Below are positions 52,367-59,303 of a stretch of DNA of 59,303 nucleotides, in pieces. Positions within the stretch are counted from its first letter, which is position 1. Every line of letters starts with the position of its first letter. The translations under genes and the position numbers were made by a program. The notes beneath the pieces are model-generated. The model saw nothing but the letters and a program-made list of their open reading frames with translations, searched no databases and was not told the DNA's origin. Origin of the DNA: Ignavibacteriales bacterium (GTDB taxonomy: Bacteria > Bacteroidota > Ignavibacteria > UBA10030); NCBI GenBank assembly GCA_016207415.1, contig JACQPT010000093.1, positions 1 through 59,303 on the forward strand, given 5' to 3'.

Positions 52367-52639
52367 ACAGACAGAGCTTTATTGACATCTCGAAGCTGGC
52401 TCGGGTGCTTTTACGACTGACCACTTGTGTGCCCAACAGGGGGAAACTTTTATTGTACGAGGCATTCAAACTAGTTCTTCCGCGTTGACAGCAATTCCTA
52501 CTTGTGACAAAACAATACTGGTAGTTACTACAAATAAGAACTTCCAACAGTCCTAGAAATACGCCCCTCTAAAATCCGACAATTTCCTCTGTATTTGGGT
52601 GTTTGTTATATGCTGGCCGGACACTCAGATTTACCAAAT

Positions 52640-52655
52640 TGGCACGAACGTTGCA
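52640..52655 (+). promoter_or_regulatory. Sigma-54 (RpoN) promoter, TGGCACGAACGTTGCA
   Basis: Exact match to TGGCACG-N4-TTGCW with correct -24/-12 spacing. It lies 46 nt upstream of ATG 52701 and follows a ~270-nt gene-free region. Confidence 0.8.
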
Positions 52656-52700
52656 ACAAGAGCTTCCATCGCCCAATCCGGAGCTTCTCGAACGGCGTCC

Positions 52701-55169
52701 ATGTACGACCTGAACAAGATATTCCCCTGGCTGTCTATTCGCAGCAAGCTCATCATTGCCTTCACGGGGCTTTCCATCATTCCCGTTGCTTTGGTTGGCC
52801 TGCACGGTATTTTTTCGAATGTCAAAATGATGAAGGACATCGCTTACGAGAATCTCTCTCACGATGTCCACATCATTCGCAGAAACACGTCGAATTTTCT
52901 TTCGGGAGTTGACGCCGACCTTCGACTGATTCGGAACTTCTCTTCATTCCGTCGTCTCGAACTTGTTCTTGAACGTTCTCCTTTTCCTGTCGAACACCGT
53001 TCCCTTCAGCAATTGACCGATGAACTCCTTGCGTTTGCAGAGTCGAAGAACATTTATTATCAGGTCCGGCTTCTGAATGGCCAGGGGGACGAATTGTTAA
53101 GGGTTGAATCCGAGAGCTCTTCAGACCAACGTCGCGTGTATCGCTCTGCCGAACGCTCCGACCTTAACCAAAGCCGTGAAAGCTACTATTCTCTCCTTGT
53201 GGAGAATTTGCGCCAGGATGAAATTATCTTTGCCGCTGCCGAGCTTTCAGACCGAAACAACAACCGGGTTCCGGTCATTAGTTTTGCAATGCCAATAAAT
53301 GGCGCAGAGAGGCGTTTGGGAATTCTGATTGCAAATGTTTACGCGAAAGACCTCTTTCAGGCAGTGGAGGCGGGCCGGCATCTTGACGTGAAAGGCAAAG
53401 TAGTGCTCGTGAACAACGAAGGGCACTATCTCTATCATTCAGACAAGAAAAAAGAATGGAATAAGTTGCTTGCTTCCCGGGAAGAAGACAACCTCGCGCG
53501 GGATTACCCATCAGAAGTTACTGCTGCGATTCTGTCGGGAAAGGAAGGCATTTTTACAGATGCGGGCGGCGAAATTATTTCGTATGGCCCGCTCTTTTAT
53601 GAACAAAAAGCTTTGTTGAATAATGAGGGAGTTGCTGGCCTGTCGCTCCCATTCTTTGTTTTCGAGGCTCTCCACGAGGACGTGGTATTAGGTCCCGCAT
53701 GGTCGTTTGCCTGGACGTTCGGAGGTTTTCTGGTTTTGTTTCTCGGCACGTCCGTCGGGCTTGGATTGCTCGCCACGCGCCAATTCACAAGGCCCATCGC
53801 CGACCTCCAACAAGGAGCAGAGATCATTGCGCGGGGGAACTACGGCCATCGATTGGATGTGAAAACGCATGACGAGATTGAGAAGCTTGGGGAACAATTC
53901 AACCTTATGGCCCGCTCCCTTGAGGAACACGAACGTGAAATACAACGACACAGACAGGGGCTTGAAGTGCTCGTGCAACAGCGTACGCGGGAGTTGACGG
54001 AAGAGAAGACAAAACTCAAGGCAATTCTGGATAATGTTCCGAACGCGTTTGTCCTTTTAGATGAGGAATACCGCATAGTGACCGCAAGCGCCACGTTTGC
54101 GGCCGTTACAGGTCTTCAAATCCAGGACGTGAGGGGCAAGGATTGTGCCGATGTGTTTTGCAAGAATGGGTTTTGCAAAAAGTGTGTGTCGAGACAGGCG
54201 GTTTCCACCGGACGTATTGCGAGTCACATCGATATGGTCGCCAGTGATCACGGCGCAGAGCGGTTTATCGAGCACACAGCGATCCCCCTGCATGAAGACG
54301 GGCACATCAAGTCTATTCTTGAAATCATTACCGACGTAACGGAGCGCAAACGATTTGAGCAGCATCTTCTCCAAACCGAGAGGCTTATGGCCACGGGAGA
54401 AATGTCGGCTCTCATTGCACATGAATTTCGTAACTCGTTGACCTCCGTGAAGATGATTTTGCAGCTTCAGAGCGAGTCGAAAAGGCGCAATGCCTCCGAG
54501 AAAAAATCACTGACGGTGGCATTGAATTCAATTCATCACATGGAACAAATCGTGGCTGAACTGTTGAGCTTCGCAAGGCCCACACCGCTTCAATTTCAGG
54601 CGACGAATGTGACTTCGGTTATTCATGAAAGCCTCAGCTTTGTGGAACCTCATTTTATGAGACAGCGTATCCAGTTAAGCAAATCTCTTGACTCCAGCCT
54701 TCCTCTCCTGCTGCTTGATTCGCAACGGTTCAAAGAAACGTTGGTCAATATTCTTCTGAACGCCGTTCAAGCAATTGAAACCAAGCCGGAGCGGCAGAAG
54801 CAGGAAGTTGTGTCCGTCACCGCAAAAAGGACATTTTTGCGGGAAACCCTTCGTGATTTCACGTTCAACCATCTTCTTGATGGCCAAAGGACGAACAACA
54901 GGGAGGACGGTCGGGAAATTGTGCTTTTGAAAGGAAGTGAGTGCGCCGTTGTCAGTATCAGCGATTCCGGCCCGGGAATCTCAAAAGGCCTTAGGGAGCG
55001 CATTTTTGACCCATTCTTCACGACGAAAGCGAATGGAACCGGCCTTGGGTTGCCGATGGTAAAGCAGACGGTGCACGCTCACGGGGGCATCGTGAACGTG
55101 AAATGTTCGAGGGGGCAGGGAACTACGTTCAGTATCTTCTTACCTCTTTCAAATGGAGCGAGACGATGA
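52701..55169 (+). CDS. Sensor histidine kinase (TM, ~300-aa extracytoplasmic Cache-like domain, TM, HAMP, Cys-rich PAS, HisKA, HATPase)
   Basis: I chose ATG 52701 because the ORF-track start at 52599 lies upstream of the sigma-54 promoter. Two TM segments flank a large loop. HAMP is RPIADLQQGAEIIARGNYGHRL, PAS is ILDNVPNAFVLLD, the H-box is IAHEFRNSL, and the G-boxes are DSGPGI and GTGLGLPMV. Confidence 0.9.
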   Translation: MYDLNKIFPWLSIRSKLIIAFTGLSIIPVALVGLHGIFSNVKMMKDIAYENLSHDVHIIRRNTSNFLSGVDADLRLIRNFSSFRRLELVLERSPFPVEHRSLQQLTDELLAFAESKNIYYQVRLLNGQGDELLRVESESSSDQRRVYRSAERSDLNQSRESYYSLLVENLRQDEIIFAAAELSDRNNNRVPVISFAMPINGAERRLGILIANVYAKDLFQAVEAGRHLDVKGKVVLVNNEGHYLYHSDKKKEWNKLLASREEDNLARDYPSEVTAAILSGKEGIFTDAGGEIISYGPLFYEQKALLNNEGVAGLSLPFFVFEALHEDVVLGPAWSFAWTFGGFLVLFLGTSVGLGLLATRQFTRPIADLQQGAEIIARGNYGHRLDVKTHDEIEKLGEQFNLMARSLEEHEREIQRHRQGLEVLVQQRTRELTEEKTKLKAILDNVPNAFVLLDEEYRIVTASATFAAVTGLQIQDVRGKDCADVFCKNGFCKKCVSRQAVSTGRIASHIDMVASDHGAERFIEHTAIPLHEDGHIKSILEIITDVTERKRFEQHLLQTERLMATGEMSALIAHEFRNSLTSVKMILQLQSESKRRNASEKKSLTVALNSIHHMEQIVAELLSFARPTPLQFQATNVTSVIHESLSFVEPHFMRQRIQLSKSLDSSLPLLLLDSQRFKETLVNILLNAVQAIETKPERQKQEVVSVTAKRTFLRETLRDFTFNHLLDGQRTNNREDGREIVLLKGSECAVVSISDSGPGISKGLRERIFDPFFTTKANGTGLGLPMVKQTVHAHGGIVNVKCSRGQGTTFSIFLPLSNGARR

Positions 55170-56560
55170 GCCAGCCAACCGTCATGGTTGTGGATGATGA
55201 TCCCAAAATTCTCTTCGCCTTTCAAGAGGTTTTGCGAACTGAGGGATACAAGAGTGTGATGGCAAAGGATGGTGAGGAGGCACTGGGCAAAATTGCAGCC
55301 AGGAACCCCAATGTTATTTTTCTCGATGTCACCATGCCAAAGCTGGACGGCCTCGAATTGTTGAAACGGATAAAGGAAAACAAAGAACTTGCTCCCGTCA
55401 TCATAATTACGGGTTATGGAACGATGCAGACGGCGATCAAGGCGATGCAGCTCGGCGCTTTTGAGTATCTCACCAAGCCACTCGACGTGGCGAAGATCAG
55501 AGAGGTAACGCAGAAAGCCCTGGCGAGCACGCAGAGTTCGAAGATATCCGGGCATCAATCGCTCTACGTTGGAGATATGGTTGAACCGTATGAGCTGGTA
55601 GGGAGCAGTCCAACAATGCAGGAAGTGTACAAGCTGATCGGCTCTATTTCAACGACGCCGAACCATACGTCGGTGATGATCCTTGGGGAAAGCGGGTCGG
55701 GGAAAGAGCTTGTTTCGAGAACAATTCACAAAACAAGCGCGAATGCCAATCAACCTTTTGTTCCCATCAACTGCACAGCACTGCCGGAGCCGCTGCTTGA
55801 ATCTGAGCTCTTCGGCCACGAGAAAGGAGCGTTCACCGGGGCAGTTGAGCGCAAGCTCGGCAAGTTTGAAATCGCCCACACGGGAACAATCTTCCTTGAC
55901 GAAATCGGGAATCTCTCCCCTCCGCTGCAGCAAAAGCTTCTGCGTGTTTTGCAGGAACGTGAGTTTGAGCGGCTTGGTGGAAACGCGTCCATCCGCGTTG
56001 ATGCCCGCTTCATTGCTGCAACAAACCGGGACATTGCTGCCGATGTCAAAAAAGGGAGTTTTCGGGAGGATTTGTTCTTTCGGCTGAACGTTGTGACGGT
56101 GAGCCTGCCTCCGCTTCGTGAGCGCGGAGAGGACATCCCGCTGCTTGCCAACTACTTCATGAAAAAATACAATGAGCAGCTGAAGAAATATATCAAAGGT
56201 TTTTCCCATGAAGCGATGACCCTCCTCCAGAGACATTCATACCTTGGCAATGTCCGCGAGTTGGAAAATCTGATTGAGCGCGCTGTGATGTTAACAAAAG
56301 GTGAGGTGGTCCTTCCGGACTCGATTGGCGAACCGCATCCTCCGGCCCATGACAGAGTCTCTCTTCCAATCACCAGCCAGACATTCAGCAAATCGCGGAT
56401 CGATCTGCTCAATATGTTTGAACGACAGTTTGTTTCAGAGCAACTCGTCAAACACCACGGCAATGTCACGGCTGCCGCAAGAGCCTCGAAAATGACCCGC
56501 CAGAATTTTCAGCGGTTGATGACCAAGCATCGCCTTCACGCCAAGCAGTTCCGCAGCTAA
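55166..56560 (+). CDS. Sigma-54-dependent response regulator (NtrC family enhancer-binding protein)
   Basis: ATGA overlap with the kinase stop. Receiver domain (VVDDDP...FLDVTMP...LTKP), an AAA+ domain with GESGSGKE and the GAFTGA loop, and a C-terminal Fis-type HTH. Confidence 0.93.
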   Translation: MSQPTVMVVDDDPKILFAFQEVLRTEGYKSVMAKDGEEALGKIAARNPNVIFLDVTMPKLDGLELLKRIKENKELAPVIIITGYGTMQTAIKAMQLGAFEYLTKPLDVAKIREVTQKALASTQSSKISGHQSLYVGDMVEPYELVGSSPTMQEVYKLIGSISTTPNHTSVMILGESGSGKELVSRTIHKTSANANQPFVPINCTALPEPLLESELFGHEKGAFTGAVERKLGKFEIAHTGTIFLDEIGNLSPPLQQKLLRVLQEREFERLGGNASIRVDARFIAATNRDIAADVKKGSFREDLFFRLNVVTVSLPPLRERGEDIPLLANYFMKKYNEQLKKYIKGFSHEAMTLLQRHSYLGNVRELENLIERAVMLTKGEVVLPDSIGEPHPPAHDRVSLPITSQTFSKSRIDLLNMFERQFVSEQLVKHHGNVTAAARASKMTRQNFQRLMTKHRLHAKQFRS

Positions 56561-56699: not shown

Positions 56700-56715
56700 T
56701 GGTATAGCCATTGAT
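56700..56715 (+). promoter_or_regulatory. Weak sigma-54-like element TGGTATAGCCATTGAT with correct GG/TTG spacing
   Basis: The GG at -24 and TTG at -12 are correctly spaced, but -12 reads GA rather than GC. It lies 29 nt upstream of ATG 56744. Confidence 0.3.
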
Positions 56716-57175: not shown

Positions 57176-58423
57176 ATGAATAGGATTCTGCGTCTTTTCG
57201 CCGTAACACTGATCGCGGTTGTGCTGGTGGAAGTTGGCTACGCCATACCATCGTTTTCACGGAAGTACAAGACGAGTTGCAGCACGTGTCACTACGCTGC
57301 TCCAATGCTTAACGGATTCGGAAAAGCATTCAAAAACAACGGCTATCGTTATCCTGCCGGAACCGATCCAGAGATGACAAAGGAAGAGCCTGTCAGTTTG
57401 GGCTCGGAGGGCTACAAGAAGGTGTGGCCGGAAGCTATCTGGCCGAGTGATATCCCTGGAACCAGCCCCTTGTCTATTTGGGGTATTGGACGGATCAACT
57501 ATGCAGCGATGAATGACGTAAAGTGGGAGTTTGAGTTTCCGCACGAGGTTGAAATTCTGTACGCTGGTACGATTGGCGAGAATTTCTCCTTCTTTGGCGA
57601 ACTGGAATTCGAAAACGAGGATAATCAAAACGAGATTATGTACCCGTTTGCACTCCAGTATGATTGGAGTCCCGGATTGCACATTCGAGCTGGCATGGTC
57701 CATGCCGATCCGACGCCGAACCACCTGAAACTCACGCGCAATCACTACAATATCGCAAGCTTCCGAAGTCGTAATCGCTGGAGATTCCGTGATGAACAAA
57801 TCGGCCTGGAGGTATGGGGCGCGGGCAATGGGTCGGGTGAGCGTGGAGGCTATACCTATCGAGCTGGCGTTGTCAACGGTCAAGGGATCAACGATATGAA
57901 CAAAGAGAAGGATATCTACGGCAAGGTCACTTACAAAATTGGGGGACTTGGTGAGACTGGAGGAACCGCAGGAGCAGAAAGCCAAACTTCTGAGTTCTTC
58001 ATCGATAACAGCGTCACCGTCGGCGGATTTTTCTATAAAGGCACAGCTTCCAGGGCCGGTTTCAACGATGAAGACTTTACGATCTTCGGAGGCGACGTCG
58101 ATTACTGGTATGACCGGTTTATTGTCAACGGCGCCCTCATGTTCATGAATTCCGGGATGCCAGGGATTCCCGAGAGGAAATCCATGGTGTATTATCTTCA
58201 GGGCAACCACGTCATTTACCCGTGGCTCATAGGCCTTATCCGGTATGAATGGGAAGATGCGGATACCGATCAGGACGCTGTCAAGCCCGTGAACGCCTTT
58301 ATTCCTGGTGTCACTGTCATGGCACGTGCAAACGTGAAACTTGTCCTTGAGTTCAAGATGTTCCTGGACGATGTCAACAAGAAAAACGACACGTTTACGC
58401 TGCAAATGAATTTCGGCCTGTAA
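57176..58423 (+). CDS. Outer-membrane fused monoheme cytochrome c / beta-barrel protein (Cyc2-like candidate)
   Basis: A GGAGG sequence lies 5 nt upstream. The protein has a signal peptide and a single CSTCH at residues 35-39, followed by P-M-L. The remaining ~370 aa are Gly/aromatic-rich with alternating hydrophobicity, and the C-terminus is ...LQMNFGL. Confidence 0.6.
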   Translation: MNRILRLFAVTLIAVVLVEVGYAIPSFSRKYKTSCSTCHYAAPMLNGFGKAFKNNGYRYPAGTDPEMTKEEPVSLGSEGYKKVWPEAIWPSDIPGTSPLSIWGIGRINYAAMNDVKWEFEFPHEVEILYAGTIGENFSFFGELEFENEDNQNEIMYPFALQYDWSPGLHIRAGMVHADPTPNHLKLTRNHYNIASFRSRNRWRFRDEQIGLEVWGAGNGSGERGGYTYRAGVVNGQGINDMNKEKDIYGKVTYKIGGLGETGGTAGAESQTSEFFIDNSVTVGGFFYKGTASRAGFNDEDFTIFGGDVDYWYDRFIVNGALMFMNSGMPGIPERKSMVYYLQGNHVIYPWLIGLIRYEWEDADTDQDAVKPVNAFIPGVTVMARANVKLVLEFKMFLDDVNKKNDTFTLQMNFGL

Positions 58424-58439
58424 GAAAAAAGGAGTACAC

Positions 58440-59036
58440 ATGAACAGAATCAAAATTGTCGTTTCGATTTCTCTGCTGTTCCTTCTTTCGCAGCCTCTGT
58501 TTGCGGGCGATATCAAGGGAAAAGTGAAAGCGAAAGGCGTGAAACACAGCGGTGACGCGGTGGTCTACATCGAGAAAATCGACGGCAAGACGTTCGACGT
58601 CCCGAAAGATCATGCGAAAATGGACCAGAAGAATCTGACGTTCATTCCGCATGTGTTGCCCGTTCTTGCCGGAACGACGGTGGACTACCTCAACAGTGAC
58701 GAAGTCCTTCACAATGTCTTCAGTCCTGAAACTTGCGTGGACAAGTTCAACCTCGGCACGTGGCCGAAGGGCCAGATCAGGTCGTACACATTCAAAAAGT
58801 CGGGTTGCATACCGGTGATGTTATGCAATGTGCATCCGGAGATGGAAGCCTATGTGATCGTCCTTGAGACGCCATATCACGGCGTGACCGCGAAGGACGG
58901 CACGTATGAGATCAAAGATGTGCTTCCCGGAAAGTATGAGCTGAAGATTTGGCACGAAAAACTGAAAGGCGCATCTGTGGTAGTGGAGGTTCCGGAACAT
59001 GGAGAGGTTGTTGTCAACTTTGACATCAAAAGATAA
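58440..59036 (+). CDS. Secreted cupredoxin-like protein (candidate type-1 Cu site H91/C129/H132/M135) with a C-terminal CarboxypepD_reg-like beta-sandwich
   Basis: 198 aa with a signal peptide. HNVFS followed ~38 residues later by CNVHPEM gives C-x2-H-x2-M spacing, as in the amicyanin CTPHPFM. The C-terminus is DGTYEIKDVLPGKYELKIWHEKL. Confidence 0.62.
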   Translation: MNRIKIVVSISLLFLLSQPLFAGDIKGKVKAKGVKHSGDAVVYIEKIDGKTFDVPKDHAKMDQKNLTFIPHVLPVLAGTTVDYLNSDEVLHNVFSPETCVDKFNLGTWPKGQIRSYTFKKSGCIPVMLCNVHPEMEAYVIVLETPYHGVTAKDGTYEIKDVLPGKYELKIWHEKLKGASVVVEVPEHGEVVVNFDIKR

Positions 59037-59086: not shown

Positions 59087-59242
59087 ATGGAGAAAGCGAT
59101 CGTAGTTCGTGGATGGGCTGTCATGGGTTTTGTTGTGGGGCTCCTGTTTTTTCTGATGCAGACAGACTCACGGGTGAGGCCCCTCAGACGTTCAAGCTTC
59201 TTATGGAACCTAGTGCACTCGTACTGGCTGCCGGCGGGCTGA
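59087..59242 (+). CDS. Possible 51-aa membrane peptide; the frame assignment is ambiguous
   Basis: The ATG is preceded by GAGGTGAGG, and one TM helix is present (WAVMGFVVGLLFFLM). A second frame is open from at least nt 59029 (first plausible starts GTG 59077 / ATG 59113) to the window end. It encodes another TM helix (SALVLAAGGLMGVSCALFALSFL), so the true gene model is unclear. Confidence 0.2.
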   Translation: MEKAIVVRGWAVMGFVVGLLFFLMQTDSRVRPLRRSSFLWNLVHSYWLPAG

Positions 59243-59303
59243 TGGGAGTTTCTTGCGCATTATTTGCGCTCTCATTTCTCAAGATCAGCAAAAAGCACAA
59301 GAA

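Follow-up and report, generated by a model that had tools for sequence, protein, structure and literature searches.

Which periplasmic protein exchanges electrons with Cyc2 in the uncultured bacteria that carry this fused cytochrome-porin? The question is raised by the end of a contig of an Ignavibacteriales bacterium (GenBank assembly GCA_016207415.1, contig JACQPT010000093.1, positions 1 to 59,303 of the forward strand). The whole of this stretch of 59,303 nucleotides (nt) is called the window here. Close to its end, a gene for a predicted secreted cupredoxin of 198 amino acids (aa) directly follows a Cyc2-type gene. Cyc2 is the most widely used genetic marker of microbial iron oxidation. 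Many Cyc2 homologues of uncultured, seemingly heterotrophic phyla, often assigned to 'cluster 3', lack an assigned function or periplasmic partner (PMC8406198, PMC9769843). We believe, with a probability of roughly 70%, that the 198-aa protein is a periplasmic carrier with a putative type-1 copper site, which would link the haem of Cyc2 to the c-type haems of a quinone-interacting complex.

The identity of the 198-aa protein was determined from its ligands, fold and homologues. An earlier note on this DNA had described an open reading frame (ORF) of 198 codons with H91 and a C-x2-H-x2-M arrangement, and had compared the latter with the type-1 copper loop of amicyanin. Both are present in the sequence as stated. 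H91 (codon 58710-58712) sits in LHNVFS, and C129 (58824-58826), H132 (58833-58835) and M135 (58842-58844) sit in C-N-V-H-P-E-M, as counted in the translation. The AlphaFold2 (AF2) model, with 60 homologues as input, had a mean predicted local distance difference test score (pLDDT) of 86.4 and a predicted template modelling score (pTM) of 0.80. Foldseek against PDB returned amicyanins first (E-value (E) 3e-5, TM score about 0.65 normalised on the target), followed by the Nitrosopumilus cupredoxin 5fc9, plastocyanins and pseudoazurins, and the predicted fold is the Greek-key beta-sandwich of cupredoxins. In a phmmer search of PDB sequences, the NirK-type C-terminal cupredoxin 9cck (E 3e-4) and the amicyanin 1id2 (E 6.5e-4) were matched with the four ligands aligned in both. 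In 1id2, H91 falls on the histidine of pHNV, and C129, H132 and M135 fall on CtpHPfM. The alignment, the fold match and the conservation of the ligands support an amicyanin-type ligand set, which would bind type-1 copper.

The family is large: its homologues form more than 4,600 clusters at 90% identity, and 11,238 cluster representatives at 50% identity were matched with E<=1e-3. The ligands were near-invariant in 123 diverse full-length representatives: H91 was kept in 122, C129 in 120, H132 in 122 and M135 in 120. N92, which follows the first ligand, was kept in 109 of the 123. Such a His-Asn pair is classical in plastocyanin and amicyanin. The cupredoxins encoded next to Cyc2 share 35-80% identity with the window protein. 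His, Cys, His and Met were found in 72-73 of the 74 aligned copies, the rest being gapped there, and every intact copy keeps all four. This homology and ligand conservation are far beyond chance. Two extra cysteines, C99 (58734-58736) and C123 (58806-58808), were invariant across 60 aligned close homologues. They are kept in 58/74 and 43/74 of the Cyc2-adjacent copies, respectively, and are seldom seen in the family at large; a disulfide between them, specific to the subfamily, is possible. The family also holds tandem two-repeat proteins, as well as one 3178-aa member with seven matched stretches (P0241, P0254, P0266, P0294, P0328). In some repeats of these multi-repeat members, the Met or other ligands are replaced.

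The Pfam model PF00127 (Copper-bind) matched the whole protein with E 0.015 (16.2 bits, cut-off 21.2). Against the excised domain, the match improved to E 0.002 and covered positions 5-97 of the 99-position profile, and its 18.9 bits were still below the cut-off. The NCBIfam amicyanin model TIGR02657 gave E 0.004 and 17.5 bits against a cut-off of 110.2, so the equivalog level was not reached. Some close homologues hold a precomputed PF00127 match. As judged from sequence, the 198-aa protein is a divergent member of the Copper-bind group. An amicyanin or a role in methylamine metabolism was rejected, as the window and 160 related loci hold no mau genes. Membership in the rusticyanins was rejected as well, since no rusticyanin chain appeared among the PDB sequence matches (E<=10) or the top 50 fold matches. 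The protein is an orthologue of neither amicyanin nor rusticyanin. Database entries call its proteobacterial relatives 'methylamine utilization protein' or 'carboxypeptidase regulatory-like domain-containing protein', and close homologues of the Joint Genome Institute (JGI) carry the name 'plastocyanin'. Because no mau genes lie nearby, we regard 'methylamine utilization protein' as a label and not as a function. A role beside a nitrite or N2O reductase was also rejected: no N-oxide reductase was present among the neighbours identified in the related loci or, for the window, from 41 kb onward.

The N-terminus resembles a typical Sec signal, with MNRIK, a hydrophobic stretch and LFA/GD, and a helix is predicted there, so the protein is probably secreted. 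The earlier note had recognised a carboxypeptidase-regulatory beta-sandwich at the C-terminus. The sandwich is real, as the PF13620 match indicates, but it is not purely C-terminal, being split around the cupredoxin. On the native protein, PF13620 (CarboxypepD_reg) matched residues 137-195 with profile positions 17-80 only (25.8 bits, cut-off 32.3). After residues 22-50 were spliced to residues 141-198, the match extended over positions 2-80 of the 82-position profile (29.9 bits, again under 32.3). In the homologue from Caballeronia, residues 24-48 match PF13620 positions 1-25. Because splicing makes the profile match end-to-end, and because the model has an N-terminal hairpin, the predicted architecture is clear: a loop of a transthyretin-like CarboxypepD_reg sandwich carries the cupredoxin (approximately residues 51-142) as an insertion. 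No description of this domain-insertion architecture was found for cupredoxins in the literature searched.

The gene upstream of the cupredoxin gene encodes a protein with a hydrophobic N-terminus or signal peptide and a single CxxCH at residue 35 (C35-S-T-C-H39). Cyc2 has been defined by AxPxFAR[Q/K][T/Y] before CxxCH, PxL four residues after it and a 16-strand porin, with a screening length of >=365 aa (Keffer 2021, PMC8406198). The haem region of the window protein reads AIPSFSRKY-KTS-CSTCH-YAA-PML, which agrees with the published signature apart from one conservative Ala to Ser change. Since Ser replaces Ala (PSFSRKY), a strict PxFAR screen would miss this copy. The consensus of 48 homologues in this Cyc2-like family is AIPAFARKY. 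A tblastn search of plasmids with the Cyc2-like protein gave a single match, a Methylocystis protein with the canonical AVPSFARQT-GQP-CATCH-TAF-PEL, which shares 38% identity over the haem domain with equal spacing. The Methylocystis gene is followed by three genes for c-type cytochromes and illustrates the usual pairing of Cyc2 with c-type cytochromes in Proteobacteria.

Pfam and NCBIfam gave no match for the Cyc2-like protein, and its membership was therefore judged by the published motifs and the predicted fold. The AF2 model (pLDDT 75.9) contained approximately 16 strands at residues 99-414 and a low-confidence haem domain. Its top Foldseek matches were the 16-strand porins OmpT, OmpF, Omp32 and PorB (E approximately 1e-10). 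These motifs and the porin prediction bear out the earlier view of the upstream gene as Cyc2-like, and we accept its predicted product as a Cyc2 homologue. Cyc2 homologues have also been called in the studies behind some of the related loci, namely in Eisenbacteria and Gemmatimonadota metagenome-assembled genomes (MAGs) from Dive96 (loci L035 and L049; PMC9769843) and in Ignavibacteriales and Zixibacteria MAGs from DeMMO (L012 and L014; PMC8478452), the latter mostly as 'cluster 3' by FeGenie. The function of cluster 3 is the least certain among Cyc2 proteins, and the demonstrated activity of Cyc2 is Fe(II) oxidation only (PMC8406198).

The two genes were examined as a unit. The stop codon TAA of the Cyc2-type gene lies at 58421-58423, and 16 nt separate it from the cupredoxin ATG. 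No terminator-like hairpin was found between the two genes or just 3' of the cupredoxin gene. The earlier note had counted a start 17 nt past the stop and considered co-transcription likely. The 16-nt spacer, the Shine-Dalgarno sequence within it and the lack of a terminator agree with that view. The best explanation is that the cupredoxin is made together with the Cyc2-type protein.

The conservation of the pair was then determined from both sides. For the Cyc2 side, a Cyc2-like alignment was scanned against one genome per GTDB species, and relatives were found in at least 316 genomes. Genes at the related loci (labelled L001 and so on) were called with custom hidden Markov models and phmmer reference proteins. 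Of the 74 loci whose downstream sequence was long enough, 70 had a cupredoxin gene directly downstream on the same strand, across at least 10 phylum-level labels. L045 is a 71st Cyc2 locus with a downstream cupredoxin, in which the ORF is over-extended. For the cupredoxin side, the 80 closest cupredoxin loci in metagenomes were collected, and the 67 with >=500 nt of upstream sequence were counted; a Cyc2-like gene was directly upstream in 55 of them. The neighbourhood is therefore conserved both ways, and the spacers between the two genes are usually very short. Second Cyc2-cupredoxin pairs or tandem cupredoxin genes occur in L026 (1-1806), L069 (18361-20599) and L027 (11258-12822), so the two-gene unit duplicates as a module in some genomes.

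The best 80 of the at least 316 Cyc2-like genomes were all MAGs. Their labels included Ignavibacteriota/Bacteroidota, Calditrichota, Latescibacterota, Zixibacteria, Eisenbacteria, Fidelibacterota, Glassbacteria, Acidobacteriota, Gemmatimonadota and Desulfobacterota. According to the record titles, they came from neutral-pH groundwater, soil, fen, deep-mine and vent samples. Some 'binchicken' or third-party annotation (TPA) MAG labels (Bifidobacteriaceae, Bacteroides, Chitinophagales and Alphaproteobacteria) look unreliable and were excluded from the distribution evidence. The earlier note had considered a Cyc2-cupredoxin pairing unusual outside the acidophiles. This is true of the literature searched, but not of the genomes, given the at least 316 species genomes with relatives.

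Because the window ends at 59303, 267 nt past the cupredoxin gene, the inner-membrane complex of this organism has to be derived from relatives, of which the closest is L003 (Cyc2 83% identical). A gene for a small membrane protein begins 3' of the cupredoxin gene in the window, as in several related loci. Its frame change near 59170 is either a frameshift or a sequencing error. In L001 (10871-17526) and most of L003-L082, the genes that follow encode an NfnB/GltD-like protein with flavin adenine dinucleotide (FAD) and iron-sulfur (FeS) centres, a Rieske protein, a split cytochrome b, an octahaem cytochrome c and a monohaem lipoprotein cytochrome c. The order in these relatives is small membrane protein, NfnB/GltD-like protein, Rieske protein, in some cases a 118-aa protein, split cytochrome b, octahaem and monohaem cytochrome c. 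Of the 46 loci that extend >=8 kb downstream, 40 have the NfnB-like, Rieske, cytochrome b and octahaem genes. The 627-aa NfnB/GltD-like protein has Fer4_20, FAD/NAD(P) and an extra two-[4Fe-4S] domain, and its PDB matches are NfnA 9n5u (E 6e-90) and NfnI 5jca. The Rieske protein scored best on b6f PetC models, and the cytochrome b is split into b6-type and subunit-IV-type parts. The octahaem cytochrome carries an N-terminal anchor and the monohaem cytochrome a lipobox. Among the NCBIfam models, ExtP gave the cytochrome b 283.6 bits (cut-off 290) and ExtS gave the octahaem cytochrome 97.8 bits (cut-off 100), both just under. The 118-aa protein (L001 13273-13629) has 8 cysteines and no Pfam match and lies between the Rieske and cytochrome b genes. 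Its gene was seen in Ignavibacteria-type clusters only and is absent from the clusters of other phyla.

The modules around the cupredoxin can be exchanged. In eight loci (L011, L012, L024, L036, L041, L045, L047, L074), the pair is followed by a module like Qrc or alternative complex III (ACIII), which replaces the Rieske/cytochrome b module. It encodes a pentahaem cytochrome, followed by Mo-pterin, 4Fe-4S and NrfD proteins and one more multihaem cytochrome. L035 has this module as well (8-9 loci in all). The best NCBIfam models were QrcA/B/C and DsrP/QrcD, all under cut-off. The same octahaem and monohaem cytochromes come next where the contig reaches. The outer module is replaced in the metagenome loci L104 (255-2495) and L105 (425-3988), in which a haem-less 746-aa porin takes the place of Cyc2 before the cupredoxin, and L105 adds a preceding 11-haem cytochrome. 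The cupredoxin and the NfnB-like gene stay in both loci, and the Rieske and cytochrome b genes are also present in L104. This arrangement looks like a replacement of the outer module by one of MtrAB or porin-cytochrome complex (PCC) type. Outer and inner modules thus swap around a constant cupredoxin and two c-type cytochromes, which is the pattern expected of a soluble shuttle.

We propose that single electrons would cross the periplasm on the cupredoxin, with the haem of Cyc2 on one side and the octahaem and monohaem lipoprotein c-type subunits of the inner-membrane complex on the other. Rusticyanin between Cyc2 and the bc1 and oxidase branches (PMC10654088), auracyanin with ACIII (PMC10873879) and plastocyanin with b6f are precedents for such a role of a cupredoxin. 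The inner complex would usually be an ExtOPQ-type Rieske/cytochrome b complex with an NfnB/GltD-like NAD(P)-FAD-FeS subunit and, in a minority of the loci, a Qrc/ACIII-like Mo-pterin-FeS-NrfD complex. The direction of flow is a separate matter. At somewhat less than even odds, we tentatively lean towards inward flow, in which electrons from extracellular Fe(II) would pass through Cyc2, copper and the c-haems to a reversed or bifurcating complex and then to quinone or NAD(P)H. We lean this way because Fe(II) oxidation is the only activity that has been demonstrated for Cyc2 and because a high-potential type-1 copper suits the taking of electrons from Fe(II) at neutral pH. The high potentials of type-1 copper and class-I haems favour this direction.

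Several points weigh against the carrier proposal or its inward form. Every Pfam and NCBIfam score of the 198-aa protein falls under the curated cut-offs, and the geometry of its putative ligands is argued from homology to solved amicyanin copper sites and not from measured distances. The inner complex is taken from relatives, as described above. The cupredoxin family is approximately ten times bigger than this Cyc2 subfamily, and 12 of the 67 metagenome cupredoxin loci have no Cyc2 directly upstream. A homologue on pSymA of Sinorhizobium meliloti (L083) lies beside an SCO copper chaperone without Cyc2. On plasmid p1 of Caballeronia grimmiae (L084 3503-7836), the order is DUF3034, truncated haemoglobin, cupredoxin homologue and EAL, also without Cyc2. 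In L035, the cupredoxin heads the Qrc/ACIII-like operon with Cyc2 on the opposite strand, and in L025, Cyc2 has no adjacent cupredoxin. Finally, the nearest characterised relative of the Rieske/cytochrome b module is ExtOPQS of the metal reducer Geobacter, which argues against assuming inward flow.

This last point leads to the opposite direction, in which quinol, or NAD(P)H through the NfnB-like subunit, would feed the Rieske/cytochrome b or NrfD-type complex, and electrons would leave through the c-haems, the cupredoxin and Cyc2. The acceptor would be a high-potential extracellular one, such as Mn(IV), chelated Fe(III), oxidised humics, or selenite/tellurite. We consider outward flow a serious, though less likely, alternative. 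Plastocyanin is the electron acceptor of b6f. The cytochrome b and octahaem scores near the ExtP and ExtS cut-offs, together with the metal-reducing owner of ExtOPQS, point the same way. A cupredoxin is also the acceptor in the known pair of ACIII and auracyanin (PMC10873879), and the hosts are mostly described as heterotrophs, including relatives of Fe(III) reducers (PMC6344600, PMC9769843). On the other side stands the Fe(II)-oxidising activity of Cyc2, the only one demonstrated (PMC8406198). The minority inner module, moreover, resembles Qrc, a menaquinone reducer that uses periplasmic electrons. Typical potentials of type-1 copper (approximately +200 to +400 mV) are too high for reducing Fe(III) oxides at pH 7.

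The arrangements in L035 and L025 suggest that the inner complex, and not Cyc2, may be the tighter partner of the cupredoxin. The cupredoxin could then serve mainly as a soluble partner of that complex without direct contact with Cyc2; the adjacency would reflect one regulon, and other cytochromes would bridge the gap. The cupredoxin indeed remains beside the inner-complex genes in loci where Cyc2 is missing, has been exchanged or lies on the opposite strand (L035, L090, L104, L105, L121, L125, L130, L153), and the octahaem and monohaem lipoprotein cytochromes are constant members of the cluster. However, the cupredoxin gene lies immediately 3' of Cyc2 in nearly all of the counted Cyc2 loci (70/74), mostly with very short spacers, and separate Cyc2-cupredoxin pairs without an adjoining inner complex occur in L026 and L069. 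We regard this explanation as unlikely.

A more far-reaching form of inward flow would make the pair the entry port of a machine that produces NAD(P)H from extracellular Fe(II) and bypasses complex I through the NfnB-like FAD/FeS subunit. Electrons from Fe(II) would travel by way of the copper protein and the two cytochromes (octahaem and monohaem) to the ExtOPQ-type complex, working in reverse or by bifurcation, and the Qrc/ACIII-like module would be interchangeable with it. We hold this to be improbable. If it were true, many 'heterotrophic' Ignavibacteriota, Calditrichota, Zixibacteria, Acidobacteriota and Gemmatimonadota would have a hidden lithotrophic or mixotrophic capacity.

That the 198-aa protein is no electron carrier at all, and instead handles copper, serves as a structural or adhesive CarboxypepD_reg metal protein or holds a catalytic site like nitrosocyanin or the Nitrosopumilus cupredoxin, is very improbable: its S. 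meliloti homologue adjoins the SCO chaperone, the third-best fold match is the Nitrosopumilus 'purple cupredoxin' 5fc9 and an extra beta-sandwich is unusual in a soluble shuttle, but the protein has the full His/Cys/His/Met set and the conserved Asn that mark type-1 sites of electron transfer, the gene context is entirely respiratory and an SCO neighbour is equally expected for the copper loading of a cupredoxin.

The proposed carrier was compared with known systems. It resembles the amicyanin of Paracoccus (1id2, 1aac; TIGR02657) in the fold, the His...Cys-x2-His-x2-Met spacing, the HNV at the first His and the HP after the second. The C-x2-H-x2-M of amicyanin is the shortest natural ligand loop, and it is the same in the 198-aa protein. 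The two differ in that the identity is approximately 26-30% over approximately 90 residues, and that the domain here is inserted in a CarboxypepD_reg sandwich and has no mau genes nearby. The rus operon is similar in that a periplasmic cupredoxin is encoded there in a single transcription unit with cyc2 and is linked to a bc-type complex; here, the Cyc2, cupredoxin and Rieske/cytochrome b genes are clustered. This is a functional analogy and not membership, as no homology to rusticyanin is detectable beyond the shared fold. The ligand loop of rusticyanin is longer than C-x2-H-x2-M. In the related loci, the cupredoxin gene adjoins cyc2, whereas the rusticyanin gene lies at the far end of its operon. 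The hosts here come from neutral-pH samples, the Rieske/cytochrome b complex has an NfnB-like subunit, and there are no oxidase genes in the cluster. In the model for Acidithiobacillus ferrooxidans, rusticyanin takes the electrons of Cyc2 and feeds both the 'uphill' bc1 branch and the downhill branch to the oxidase (PMC10654088).

The Cyc2-type protein shares the signal peptide, the single CxxCH, the motif, the PxL, the length of >=365 aa and the 16-strand porin with published Cyc2 (McAllister 2020; Keffer 2021, PMC8406198). Proteobacterial cyc2 is typically followed by c-type cytochromes, as in Methylocystis, whereas a cupredoxin follows here. The extHIJKLMNOPQS cluster of Geobacter (PMC5877670) likewise has an outer-membrane porin-like gene beside a complex of Rieske protein, cytochrome b, membrane subunit and c-type lipoprotein. 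It differs in its haem-less porin, the multihaem ExtKL, ExtM and ExtN, and it has no cupredoxin and no NfnB-like subunit. The anammox clusters Kuste4569-4574 and Kustd1480-1485, compared by composition, also combine a Rieske/cytochrome b with an FAD multi-FeS NAD(P) subunit and multihaem cytochromes c, but they have neither Cyc2 nor a cupredoxin. Their complexes have been proposed to couple quinol oxidation to NAD(P)+ reduction (PMC12954380). The pairs plastocyanin/b6f and auracyanin/ACIII share a small blue-copper soluble partner of a complex III analogue (PMC10873879), and the split cytochrome b and PetC-like Rieske protein of the related loci fit this likeness. These pairs differ in belonging to photosynthetic or aerobic respiratory chains without an outer-membrane conduit. 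The electron-uptake cupredoxins UetF of Tenderia and Slit_1816-1818 of Sideroxydans were rejected as counterparts: they are larger, multicopper-oxidase-like or multi-domain, and they are not described beside cyc2. Plastocyanin and auracyanin are single-domain proteins, and auracyanin is membrane-tethered.

The kind of protein (a cupredoxin), the neighbourhood of Cyc2 and the concept of a path from Cyc2 through a cupredoxin to a bc complex are already known from A. ferrooxidans. New are the different amicyanin-like cupredoxin lineage with its domain insertion, the strict adjacency to Cyc2 in many neutral-pH, non-proteobacterial lineages, and the embedding of the pair in a modular cluster with an NfnB-bearing ExtOPQ-type Rieske/cytochrome b or a Qrc/ACIII-like complex. 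No description of the Cyc2-cupredoxin pairing was found in the full-text literature searched, the coverage of which excludes most subscription journals. The nearest report concerns Zixibacteria, in which one cluster combines MtrAB homologues with monohaem cytochromes and PetAB and was suggested to serve iron oxidation (Castelle 2013, PMC3903129). The findings supply a conserved candidate partner of Cyc2, a putative type-1 copper protein, and a conserved candidate path that would connect this protein with the quinone pool or NAD(P). They give a testable wiring diagram for electron exchange with iron or other extracellular substances, and they correct the misleading family names 'methylamine utilization protein', 'carboxypeptidase regulatory-like' and 'plastocyanin'.

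Table 1. Coordinates of the cupredoxin gene, its parts and its neighbours in the window.
Feature	Position	Strand	Basis
Sensor histidine kinase: periplasmic Cache-like sensor, HAMP, PAS, HisKA, HATPase; first gene of the conserved unit	52599..55169	+	Pfam
Perfect sigma-54 promoter consensus TGGCACGAACGTTGCA, 0 mismatches, 46 nt before the kinase start at 52701; putative function	52640..52655	+	
Sigma-54-dependent response regulator: receiver, AAA+ sigma-54 activator, HTH_8	55103..56560	+	Pfam; conserved synteny
Weak sigma-54-like site TGGTATAGCCATTGAT, 3 mismatches, 44 nt before the receiver gene; tentative	56700..56715	+	Sequence
Stand-alone response-regulator receiver, 125 aa	56744..57121	+	Pfam Response_reg E 1e-22; conserved synteny
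Cyc2-type fused monohaem cytochrome-porin, 415 aa	57176..58423	+	Motifs, AF2, Foldseek, Methylocystis alignment
Shine-Dalgarno AGGAG of the cupredoxin gene, within the 16-nt spacer	58429..58433	+	Sequence
Secreted cupredoxin/CarboxypepD_reg-like two-domain protein (predicted), 198 aa, ATG start	58440..59036	+	ORF, homology, AF2, Foldseek
Predicted signal peptide, residues 1-22, predicted cleavage after LFA	58440..58505	+	Sequence features; helix 3-15 in AF2 model
Strands 1-2 of the CarboxypepD_reg-like sandwich, residues 23-50 (GDIKGKV...VVYIEK)	58506..58589	+	Model strands 23-32, 41-44
Inserted cupredoxin domain, residues 51-142	58590..58865	+	Copper-bind, amicyanin alignment, Foldseek, conservation
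Rest of the CarboxypepD_reg-like sandwich, residues 143-198 and stop	58866..59036	+	PF13620 residues 137-195, E 1.4e-5
Small two-helix membrane protein gene; frame 1 to approximately 59170, then frame 3	59087..59303	+	Comparison with the intact 77-aa L001 orthologue

The genes upstream of the pair are regulatory (Table 1). A histidine kinase gene is found upstream of the Cyc2-like gene in most related loci, and the stand-alone receiver is often kept there. The true start of the kinase is likely Met35 of the listed ORF (nt 52701), as its L001 orthologue suggests. No sigma-54 promoter better than the 3-mismatch site at 56700 was found just upstream of the cyc2 and receiver genes in the window. 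Across the whole window, matches with <=2 mismatches were no more frequent than chance (25 observed, 28 expected). Sigma-54 sites (<=2 mismatches) lie before the receiver or cyc2 genes in 14 of 82 related loci, against a background of 0.068 per kb. Support for sigma-54 control thus comes only from the perfect site at 52640 and from the higher frequency of such sites in the relatives. This perfect site before the kinase suggests autoregulation by the adjacent sigma-54 activator. The sensor kinase and the sigma-54 activator appear to switch on the cupredoxin unit, and the stimulus of this regulatory pair could reveal the substrate.

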